Assembly (NCBI GenBank): GCA_963810295.1
Contig: CAWEMW010000004.1
Location: forward strand, 120,392-184,391
Source of the DNA: an uncultured Actinomycetes bacterium
Lineage (GTDB): Bacteria; Actinomycetota; Thermoleophilia; Gaiellales; Gaiellaceae
Direction: 5' to 3'
Length of the DNA: 64,000 nt
The notes under the pieces were generated by a model, which saw nothing but the letters and a program-made list of their open reading frames with translations, did no database searches and was not told where the DNA came from. Shown here piece by piece: positions 37,886 to 39,986 of the stretch. A program made the position numbers and the translations under genes. Numbering within the stretch: position 1 is the first letter of the stretch; each line of letters opens with the position of its first letter.

Positions 37886-38968
37886 ATGCTTCCCGACCGT
37901 GACGCGATCCTGAAGGCGCTCGAGCAGGTCATCGACCCCGAGCTCAAGCGCCCCGTCACCGAGCTCGAGATGGTGCGCGACGTGGTCGTCTCGGCCGACG
38001 CGGCGGTCGACGTCACGATCGCGCTCACCGTCGCCGGGTGCCCATTGCGCTCGAGCTTCGAGGACCAGGTTGCGCGTCACGTCGGGGCGGTGCCGCACGT
38101 TGCGCGTGTCGCGCTCCACTTCGACGTGATGAGTCCCGAGGAGAAGGCGGCGCTCGCGACACGCCTCCGAGGCGGCCGTCCGGAGCGCGAGATCCGGCTC
38201 GATCCCGGGACGCGTGTTGTCGCGGTCGCCTCGGGCAAGGGCGGCGTGGGCAAGTCGACGTTGACGGCGAACCTCGCCGCAGCGCTGGCCGAGCGTGGCG
38301 AGCGCGTCGGCGTTCTCGACGCGGACGTCTACGGGTACTCGATTCCCCACGTGCTCGGGATCACCCAGCGCCCCATCGTCGTCGACTCGATGATCGTGCC
38401 GCCGGTTCGTGGTGAGCTGAAGATCATGTCGATCGGCCTCTTTGCCGAGGACAACGGGCCGATCATGTGGCGCGGGCCTATGCTCCACAAGGCGCTCGAG
38501 CAGTTTCTCTCGGACGTGCACTGGGGCGAGCTCGACACGCTCGTCGTCGACATGCCGCCCGGCACGGGCGACGTCGCGATCTCGATCGGTCAGCTCCTGC
38601 CGCGCGCCGAGGCGCTGATCGTGACGACGCCGCAGCCCGCGGCCCAGCAGGTCGCGGTGCGCGCCGCCGTGATGGCGCAGAAGCTCGGCATGCGGATCAC
38701 GGGTGTCGTGGAGAACATGTCGTGGTTGGTCGGAACCGGGCAGGAGCTGTTCGGCGCCGGAGGCGGCGATGCGCTCGCGGCTGAGATTGACGCGCCCGTG
38801 CTGGCGCGAATCCCGTTCGACCCGGCCCTCCGCGAGGCATCTGACGCGGGACAGCCGGTGATCGAGGCGGATCCGGAGGCCGAGGCGAGTGAGGCGATCC
38901 GCACCCTGGCCGAGGCAGTCCAGTCCCGCCGCCAGGGCCAGATCCGCAAGGCGCTCACTGTTCTCTAG
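37886..38968 (+). CDS. mrp: Mrp/NBP35 (ApbC) Fe-S carrier ATPase with N-terminal DUF59
   Basis: VIDPEL, LTVAGCPL, SGKGGVGKST, DADVYG, WRGPML, DMPPGTGD and ENMS. Confidence 0.92.
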   Translation: MLPDRDAILKALEQVIDPELKRPVTELEMVRDVVVSADAAVDVTIALTVAGCPLRSSFEDQVARHVGAVPHVARVALHFDVMSPEEKAALATRLRGGRPEREIRLDPGTRVVAVASGKGGVGKSTLTANLAAALAERGERVGVLDADVYGYSIPHVLGITQRPIVVDSMIVPPVRGELKIMSIGLFAEDNGPIMWRGPMLHKALEQFLSDVHWGELDTLVVDMPPGTGDVAISIGQLLPRAEALIVTTPQPAAQQVAVRAAVMAQKLGMRITGVVENMSWLVGTGQELFGAGGGDALAAEIDAPVLARIPFDPALREASDAGQPVIEADPEAEASEAIRTLAEAVQSRRQGQIRKALTVL

Positions 38969-39061
38969 CGACGGGACAGGGCTCTGCCCGCGTTCCCTCT
39001 GTGAAGCCAGGGCGGCTGGGACGCGGCCCACGGCCATATCCCGCAGCTTCAACACGCCCTC

Positions 39062-39092
39062 ACGGAAAGGGAGCCCGGAGGCTCCCTTCCGT
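39062..39092 (-). terminator. Terminator-like hairpin closing the putative sRNA
   Basis: Minus strand ACGGAAGGGAGCC-TCCG-GGCTCCCTTTCCGT, long stem. Confidence 0.65.
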
Positions 39093-39197
39093 CGACGGCG
39101 AGCCCTGCGGCGGTGGGCCGATGCCGTCGCTGCACGCCCGCGCCGGGGGGAGGCGCGGCCATCCAGATGAATCCTCGCAGGAACTCTGTGAGGACAG
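39062..39197 (-). ncRNA. Probable 6C-like small RNA
   Basis: On the minus strand, hairpin GCCGCGCC-TCCCCCC-GGCGCGGGC (39136-39159) is followed by hairpin CGACGGC..CGGC-CCACC-GCCG..GCCGTCG (39093-39129). A 5' hairpin (39171-39194) and a terminator flank them. Confidence 0.6.
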
Positions 39198-39203
39198 TGT
39201 TAA

Positions 39204-39230
39204 GTACCCACCCACTTTAGGGTTGAAACC
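39204..39230 (-). promoter_or_regulatory. SigF/SigB-type promoter driving the putative sRNA
   Basis: Minus strand GGTTT-N16-GGGTAC matches the actinobacterial SigF consensus GGWWT-N16/17-GGGTAY. Confidence 0.6.
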
Positions 39231-39986
39231 ATGCACGGTGCGGACGATGCGATCGCACGGCTTTCGGCACGGGGCCTGAGCCGGCGTGACGCCGCCGTCA
39301 TCGTCGATCATCTCGAGCAGGCCGATGCATCGGGCAAGCACGGACACGGTCTCGGCCGAATCCCATGGCTCGAGGGGCTTCTCGGCGACATCGCGGATCC
39401 AGGTGGCGTTCCCGAGCGGGTCGAGCGGACGGAGGGGTTCGAACGGTGGCACGGGCGCGGCGCTCTGGGCTACCTGACGCTTGCGGCCGTCTGCGATGCG
39501 CTTCTCGGCGATCCGCCCGCTCGTGCGAGGCTCGTCGTCTGCGAGGCCTGCTTCCCGACCGGGGTGCTCGGCGCCTGGGCGCGGCAGCTGGCGGACGCGG
39601 GGCTCGTCGCCGTCGTCACCGCGACATCGCCGAAGCGCCTCCCGCATCCCGACGGCGGCGCGCCTCTGACAGGTACGAACCCCATCGCCGTCGCAGTGCC
39701 CTCCTCCGACGGGCGGTCGTTCGTCGCCGACGTCTCGATGGGCGCCGTGACGCACGGGGATGTGCTCGCCGGTGACGCGCGCCCGGAGGAGCTCGTGCCG
39801 TTCGGCGGTCCTCAGGCGCACAAGGCCTTCGCGCTCGCCGCCGCCGTCGAGCTGCTCGTCGGCGCGCTCGCCGGACCGGAGCACGGCGCGATGGTGCTGG
39901 CCGCGCGGCCGGATCACGACCCCGTGCCGGCATTTCGCGAGCTGGCTGCGGGGCTCAGGCTGCCAGGCGACGCATCACACGCCTGA
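39231..39986 (+). CDS. Ldh_2 family oxidoreductase (malate/L-lactate/ureidoglycolate dehydrogenase-like), short
   Basis: AD..G..GHGL.RI, GTNPIAVAVP, D.SMG, LVPFGG and KAFAL. Confidence 0.75.
   Translation: MHGADDAIARLSARGLSRRDAAVIVDHLEQADASGKHGHGLGRIPWLEGLLGDIADPGGVPERVERTEGFERWHGRGALGYLTLAAVCDALLGDPPARARLVVCEACFPTGVLGAWARQLADAGLVAVVTATSPKRLPHPDGGAPLTGTNPIAVAVPSSDGRSFVADVSMGAVTHGDVLAGDARPEELVPFGGPQAHKAFALAAAVELLVGALAGPEHGAMVLAARPDHDPVPAFRELAAGLRLPGDASHA

Follow-up and report, generated by a model that had tools for sequence, protein, structure and literature searches.

A conserved C-loop RNA behind a SigB/SigF-type promoter in Gaiella, best described as a divergent 6C-type small RNA

Between the mrp gene (stop at 38968) and a gene of the Ldh_2 family (ATG at 39231) lies an intergenic gap of 262 nt, and we asked whether this gap holds a gene for a regulatory RNA and which kind of RNA this would be. 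The gap is part of a stretch of 64,000 nucleotides, which is called the window below. An earlier note on the same DNA had proposed a homolog of 6C RNA or a new C-loop sRNA in a probably deep-branching actinobacterium. Since the host of the element is Gaiella (Gaiellales, class Thermoleophilia), this description of the organism is correct. 6C RNA (Rfam family RF01066) is known as B11 or ncRv13660c in M. tuberculosis, scr3558 in S. coelicolor and cgb_03605 in C. glutamicum. The promoter motif, the hairpins, the C-rich loops and the terminator-like stem that had been listed were all found on the minus strand where the note had placed them. The locus comprises the following features:

37886–38968, plus strand: mrp/apbC Fe-S cluster carrier ATPase gene, 360 aa, convergent neighbour (Pfam ParA/NUBPL and FeS_assembly_P)
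39062–39197, minus strand: predicted transcript of about 135 nt with predicted ends; match to covariance model R1 at 39058–39203 with 149.8 bits
39064–39090, minus strand: P4, terminator-like hairpin (GGAAGGGAGCC UCCG GGCUCCCUUUCC) with a stem of 11–12 bp, lacking a U tract
39094–39128, minus strand: P3, GACGGC...GCCGUC hairpin with inner stem; C-rich loop ACCGCCGCA at 39106–39114
39130–39166, minus strand: P2, long first C-loop hairpin; loop UCCCCCC at 39145–39151
39172–39194, minus strand: P1, 5' hairpin (UCCUCACAG / CUGCGAGGA) with variable loop; stem 96.5% paired in 43 sequences
39204–39209, minus strand: −10 element GGGTAC; G.GTA at least 90% conserved in alignment A6
39218–39223, plus strand: TAGGGT, putative −10 element of a leaderless Ldh_2 mRNA by sequence pattern, inside the spacer of the RNA promoter
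39226–39230, minus strand: −35 element GGTTT, SigB/F-type; GTTT likewise found here in 33 of 43 homologs
39231–39986, plus strand: short Ldh_2-family gene, 251 aa, divergent neighbour (Pfam PF02615, 1.2e-32)

The start of mrp was taken as the ATG at 37886, and the best NCBIfam matches of its product are MrpORP and ApbC. The gene holds the equal position in L069, L109 and L079. Since this downstream gene is convergent, the RNA cannot be a 5' leader. On the other side, the opposite orientations of Ldh_2 (plus) and the RNA element (minus) agree with the divergent transcription that the earlier note had proposed, and an Ldh_2-like gene adjoins the RNA in 25 of 25 genomes that bear it. With a length of just 248–251 aa, the Ldh_2-family protein covers no more than positions 8–189 of the 333-position Pfam profile; all NCBIfam equivalogs for it are far below cut-off. 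Its short length is constant across the genus, which indicates a short variant and not a pseudogene. Directly 3' of the mrp stop we observed a long imperfect hairpin at 38967–39048 on the plus strand (−41 kcal/mol), which is probably the mrp terminator. It is missing in most relatives, where the 3' flank differs, and it gave a chance match of 20 bits to mir-2331.

We determined the predicted fold of the element. The minimum free energy of a 151-nt stretch is −90.2 kcal/mol, compared with −67.2 ± 4.3 kcal/mol for shuffled sequences (z = −5.4). By analogy with the mapped start site of the S. coelicolor promoter SCO3557p, the RNA is predicted to start about 9 nt past the −10 element (39195–39197), and its 3' end would lie just past the terminator stem. 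One-sided changes in P1 lead to G-U pairs on the minus strand only. The apical stem of P2 (7 bp) and its loop are essentially invariant among the 43 sequences; the exception is L062, the most divergent one, which has one U-G stem pair and one extra loop C, so that the loop reads UCCCCCCC. The lower stem of P2 contains an invariant U-G pair. UCCCCCC is found as the first loop in 42 of 43 sequences and thus has the at least six conserved cytosines of a 6C loop. The loop ACCGCCGCA of P3 sits within the loop region CCCACCGCCGC; as predicted, it has five C broken by two G, and eight C are reached only if the flanking CCC of the stem is counted. P2 and P3 are separated by 0–1 nt and span 73 nt together, corresponding to the two adjacent stem-loops of about 80 nt that are expected of a 6C RNA. 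P4 is swapped for an unrelated strong hairpin in L078 and L101, as expected of a terminator, and a consensus scan of the gap for canonical terminators reported none.

The element is present as a single copy in its own 3.5-Mb MAG. BLAST revealed 13 relatives within the same GTDB genus at 81–92% identity, and the similarity runs from about 39194, almost exactly the predicted transcription start, to about 39064 in the terminator. R1 detected the element in 26 of the 61 genomes searched within the genus, each time as one copy, and gave nothing convincing outside the genus over 151 genomes of the order. Matches of 27–31 bits in the order were inspected and turned out to be terminator hairpins without C loops. 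When all GTDB species genomes were scanned with an exact pattern, 40 records of Gaiella or uncultured-actinomycete MAGs were obtained, plus two chance matches. Together this gave 43 distinct sequences from related MAGs, scoring 112–168 bits; all carriers of the RNA are MAGs. Identity of Ldh_2 to that of the window is 73–83% in RNA-bearing genomes and 60–70% in genomes of the same genus without the RNA, which indicates that the carriers form one subclade. Searches around Ldh_2 in genomes without the RNA, done with filters off, gave no diverged copy. There, either just a few bases lie between mrp and Ldh_2, or a different gene stands next to Ldh_2. Examples of the former are L113:2230-2260 and L114:1480-1500 from the same genus, with the mrp stop a few bases from the Ldh_2 start. 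This suggests that an ancestral mrp-Ldh_2 operon was split by an RNA locus of about 260 nt. None of the other SigB/F-motif sites in the own genome has a C run behind it, which speaks against paralogs.

We assessed the structure in the 43 distinct sequences (alignment A5). This alignment was fitted to the model, so that the following counts are flattered; an earlier MAFFT/RNAalifold run gave identical helices. Standard pairs make up 98.9% of the pair cells, and compensatory changes occur at 14 pairs, compared with 2.6 ± 1.3 in column shuffles and 4–10 with slid partners. The outer stem of P3 shows compensatory changes in 5 of 6 pairs and P4 in 8 of 11 pairs, with 100% of the P4 cells paired. 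The covariation analysis suggested earlier therefore supports two helices, P3 and P4. In P2 and the two C-rich loops practically no position varies, except in the two most divergent copies, L062 and L061; for this reason the pairing of P2 lacks covariation support, and P2 is under strong sequence constraint. On the minus strand 1826 of 1847 cells are paired, compared with 1716 on the plus strand. The 111 G-U cells, which include the invariant U-G pair, identify the minus strand as the RNA strand. The element is structured, strand-specific, non-coding and conserved.

GGTTT and GGGTAC are separated by 16 nt, the modal spacing in the genome, and as the earlier note had read it, the ATG of Ldh_2 directly abuts the −35 element. 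We counted 9, 12 and 5 genome sites for GTTT-N15/16/17-GGGTA (26 in total), compared with about one site each at other spacings, and a control with reversed sequences also gave about one per spacing. The proposed SigF-type promoter thus corresponds to a real regulon motif in the own genome, and this motif is identical to the consensus that was obtained by experiment for SigF of M. smegmatis (PMC4694148). A single sigma gene of the genome scores above the TIGR02980 (SigB/F/G) cut-off, with 286 bits. Motif sites are found upstream of an anti-anti-sigma gene of the STAS type about 0.9 kb from this sole SigB/F/G-type sigma gene, and further sites lie ahead of the genes for two CBS-domain proteins, a DUF883-like protein and a cupin. 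The sigma gene lies at C9:93903-94571 in a partner-switching locus outside the window (own-genome contig C9:93903-95941), in which two GTTT-N16/17-GGGTA sites are located upstream of the sigma gene, before the STAS gene and before a small basic Rho_N-like protein. The 26 sites make up a candidate regulon, and judged by sequence, a consensus promoter, a putative cognate sigma factor and partner-switching genes, the expected components of a regulon of the partner-switching SigB/SigF type (group 3), all appear to be present. Both promoter elements are retained by 33 of the 43 homologs. The other ten lack GTTT at the −35 position, and most homologs, outside the window's own subgroup, also fit the housekeeping −10 pattern TANNNT, so that the sigma assignment is not exclusive. 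Dependence of the RNA promoter on the SigB/F/G-type sigma factor is therefore plausible. A sigma-70 consensus scan of the gap returned nothing.

A second promoter seems to be located on the opposite strand, in the region 39210–39233. TAGGGT or TAGGCT followed by 6–7 nt and the ATG or GTG start of Ldh_2 was detected in all homolog groups (alignment A6), and the Ldh_2 mRNA is probably leaderless. The putative −10 element of Ldh_2 is part of a 14-bp palindrome, GACCCTAAAGGGTC, in many relatives. RNA and Ldh_2 promoters overlap in the subgroup of the window and are 30–60 nt apart in most homologs; in the former case the overlap could add promoter interference.

We then compared the element with 6C RNA. 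The Rfam 6C model, named in the earlier note as a check, did not recognise it: RF01066, with a gathering threshold of 47 bits, gave no match in the window, none on positions 38900–39350 (451 nt) at E <= 10 and none over the whole own genome. Likewise, no Rfam family was matched when the window in its full length was run through cmscan at gathering threshold, and the E <= 10 matches within the 451 nt were to miRNA- and snoRNA-like families and were judged to be chance. The element thus escapes RF01066 and formally does not belong to the 6C family. Searching 121 Thermoleophilia genomes with RF01066 gave no match above threshold and one sub-threshold match of 35 bits. In positive controls the model reached 44–92 bits overall and 70–92 bits within a family resembling Mycobacteriales; of 40 genomes from a Streptomycetales-like order, 38 were matched.

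Although the curated covariance model misses the element, its promoter, the spacing and the architecture point to a kinship with 6C. All 30 of 30 Streptomycetales-like 6C loci carry GTTT-N14-17-GGGTA on the RNA strand, 37 nt upstream of the Rfam 6C start (L139:1439-1463 and at equal offset in L142-L170), and 38 nt separate the promoter motif from P2 in the Gaiella RNA. Mycobacterial-type 6C loci show TATAGT or TAGTAT instead of the SigB-type motif. The L139 promoter is one base off SCO3557p, which was experimentally mapped as GTTTGC-N14-GGGTAC (PMC8346170), and the promoter of the Gaiella RNA matches SCO3557p in its hexamers and in their spacing of 14 nt. Expressed in hexamer terms, Streptomycetales-like 6C and the Gaiella RNA therefore have the SigB-type promoter GTTT(G/C)-N14-GGGTAC in common, at equal distance. 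SCO3557p is recognised by six SigB homologues, SigB, F, H, K, L and M (PMC8346170). The same study assigns it to the ssd operon, SCO3557 being named septum site determining protein, and the 6C RNA between promoter and gene is not mentioned there (PMC8346170).

Read from the SCO3557p-like start, the L139 transcript forms a hairpin at its 5' end and then two C-loop hairpins, an arrangement that follows the order of the Gaiella RNA. Both are actinobacterial sRNAs with two adjacent GC-rich hairpins bearing C-rich loops, with a variable 5' hairpin ahead and a divergently transcribed gene upstream. Alignment with bona fide 6C RNAs revealed a common first loop context, CCUCCCCCC, and a second hairpin that opens with GACG and closes with CGUC. 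Four mycobacterial-type 6C RNAs were found full-length and at the exact 6C coordinates by R2, a model of the P2 and P3 core of the Gaiella RNA, with 25.6–27.1 bits (E about 1e-3).

There are clear differences. The second 6C loop by definition has at least six conserved cytosines (PMC5014011), whereas the second loop of the Gaiella RNA, ACCGCCGCA, is not a run of at least six C. P3 has an internal loop and an inner stem. The Gaiella RNA possesses an extra dedicated terminator hairpin, while 6C ends with hairpin 2 and a U tail. Its neighbours are mrp/apbC and Ldh_2 in place of the HAD-family gene and the ssd (ParA/CpaE-like) operon that flank 6C (L139: HAD, 6C, ParA-like), so that the genomic context of 6C is not shared, and tblastn with Ssd of L139 gave no ssd homolog in the own genome. 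Finally, its host belongs to the Thermoleophilia and only one subclade of one genus carries it.

These differences raise the possibility of a lineage-specific C-loop sRNA of independent origin, which would have converged on the mode of action of 6C without common ancestry. The failure of the Rfam model, also over the 121 Thermoleophilia genomes, the restriction to one subclade and the unlike neighbours agree with this, as does the direct adjacency of mrp and Ldh_2 in sister genomes, which looks as if about 260 nt had been gained. Moreover, C-rich loops are common in actinobacterial sRNAs, being found in 9 of 25 in M. tuberculosis (PMC6486639). Common descent is further weakened by R2, which scores Streptomycetales 6C at 15–22.6 bits, within background for those loci. 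Over 301 genomes of the phylum the model gave one match, at 34.7 bits and in an ArsA/ParA-like coding region, which was rejected as chance. The second loop without a C6 run and the missing ssd homolog count in the same direction. An independent origin does not account, however, for the coincidence of promoter class and hexamer spacing with bona fide 6C, the 5' segment of 34–38 nt that holds a hairpin as in 6C, the common CCUCCCCCC loop, and a second hairpin following the first directly or after one base with the same opening and closing bases. We regard convergence as possible but rather doubtful, and we lean slightly towards true homology with 6C. The Gaiella RNA is best described as a divergent 6C-type sRNA, which carries a known type of RNA into a deep-branching lineage and does not constitute a new one. 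Of the two alternatives first put forward for this locus, 6C homolog or new C-loop sRNA, promoter type, spacing, hairpin order and first loop thus lend support to a relation with 6C.

We therefore propose that 39062–39197 on the minus strand is probably a free-standing gene for a structured, non-coding 6C-type sRNA, with a SigB/SigF-type promoter and with pairing of the C-rich loops to mRNAs. GGTTT-N16-GGGTAC would most likely be recognised by the single SigB/F/G-family sigma factor of the genome, and the RNA would be made once this factor is freed from its anti-sigma factor. Given the type of promoter, synthesis would be expected in stress or stationary phase. The RNA would fold into a variable 5' hairpin, two GC-rich hairpins and a hairpin resembling an intrinsic terminator without U tract. 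By analogy with 6C/B11, the C-rich single strands UCCCCCC and ACCGCCGCA may pair with G-rich stretches of several mRNAs, typically in Shine-Dalgarno regions, and translation would be repressed in this way with no need for a chaperone of the Hfq kind. In M. tuberculosis and M. smegmatis, 6C binds mRNAs via its C-rich loops without chaperones (PMC6486639), and C-loop pairing with G-rich mRNA is the likely mechanism common to 6C and the Gaiella RNA. The first loop with its closing bases contains CCUCC, which resembles the anti-Shine-Dalgarno core, so that ribosome binding sites with G runs would be natural targets. We scanned for exact complements of the loops at −40 to +20 of predicted translation starts, using crude GC3-based gene calls, and found no enrichment in this crude scan (27 sites observed, 22.7 expected). 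The longest loop complements fall within coding sequences. A complement of 12 nt overlapping a Shine-Dalgarno sequence at C9:19528 is not significant.

The constant position of the RNA between mrp and Ldh_2 also allows for an action in cis, either as an antisense RNA to read-through mrp-Ldh_2 transcripts or by interference with the overlapping Ldh_2 promoter. This is in line with the abutment of mrp and Ldh_2 in genomes without the RNA and with the overlap of the RNA promoter with the start and putative −10 element of Ldh_2 in the window. Against it, Ldh_2 seems to own a leaderless promoter (TAGGGT-N6/7-start), so that its mRNA need not overlap the RNA, which makes a purely cis-antisense role less likely. 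Moreover, an antisense RNA needs neither invariant loops nor compensatory changes in its stems nor a strand bias of G-U pairs, and the distance of 30–60 nt between the two promoters in most homologs argues against interference. We therefore consider action in cis unlikely. The convergent downstream gene and the RNA's own terminator imply that the Gaiella version must be a stand-alone, trans-acting RNA, which bears on an old ambiguity, as Rfam still lists 6C as 'Cis-reg'.

Strong hairpins between two genes, with similar GGAGGG..CCCUCC terminator hairpins being widespread in the lineage, might also be conserved as a bidirectional terminator or structured spacer, at the level of DNA or of the mrp 3'UTR, without an RNA product of their own. 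We consider this very improbable: mrp has its separate hairpin region at 38967–39048, the strand favoured by the G-U pairs is the one that does not encode mrp, sister genomes lack a spacer altogether, and a terminator would need far less than four hairpins in a set order, with loops that hardly vary and a promoter motif at fixed distance.

A small protein, MAAPPPGA..., starting from the conserved AUG in P2, which lies 9 nt behind a Shine-Dalgarno-like GAGGA, is almost invariant and in most homologs is followed by about 35 codons without a stop, is the least credible reading and was rejected, as past codon 11 indels of 1–2 nt put the 43 homologs into all three frames (20/12/11) so that no protein sequence is conserved, the nearly invariant synonymous sites of the first 11 codons point to a constraint at the RNA level, and open frames are expected at 70% GC. 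A conserved protein ORF across the region, which the earlier note had named as evidence against an RNA gene, was looked for and not found.

Returning to the proposed 6C-type sRNA, it would be the first one described outside the class Actinomycetes, in a poorly studied but abundant group of soil bacteria, the Gaiellales. The promoters link 6C with sigma factors of the SigB/SigF type in two orders that are far apart, and this gives a hint at the timing and the purpose of the synthesis of such RNAs. Tentatively, 6C-type RNAs might be an ancient arm, present throughout the phylum, by which the partner-switching SigB/SigF regulon of stress and development acts post-transcriptionally, with a promoter-hairpin-C-loop module kept from Streptomycetales to Gaiellales while the gene was moved or transferred between loci and drifted past the Rfam model. 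If this were true, many deep-branching Actinomycetota would hide undetected relatives of 6C, the mapped SCO3557p of S. coelicolor would be the 6C promoter, and in the subgroup to which the window belongs the overlapping promoters would place Ldh_2 under an additional switch by sigma competition. A modest practical gain would be a better seed for the 6C model and a candidate stress sRNA of uncultured soil actinobacteria.

Similar regulatory logic is known from other systems. SfdS/F6 (ncRv10243) of M. tuberculosis is a SigF-dependent sRNA induced by stress and starvation (PMC8557902). Like the Gaiella RNA, for which transcription is predicted, it is a stand-alone actinobacterial sRNA with a typical SigF promoter; its architecture is different and F6 is processed to 58 nt, so that only the regulatory logic is common to both. 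RoxS/RsaE of Firmicutes pairs via C-rich loop motifs with the G-rich Shine-Dalgarno regions of numerous mRNAs and is regulated by ResD/Rex and SrrA. This RNA belongs to another phylum, has an unrelated sequence and responds to other regulators, and no homology to the Gaiella RNA is implied.

During inspection of the alignments we noticed that many relatives have recurring hairpins of the type GGGGGAAACC..GGTTTCCCCC, in some cases arranged in tandem, in the stretch between the RNA and mrp. They are found in L009, L010, L015, L016, L018 and L019 (alignment A2, columns 290–350) as well as in L078 and L101, and in two genomes they stand in for the RNA's own terminator. These hairpins may represent a REP-like element.
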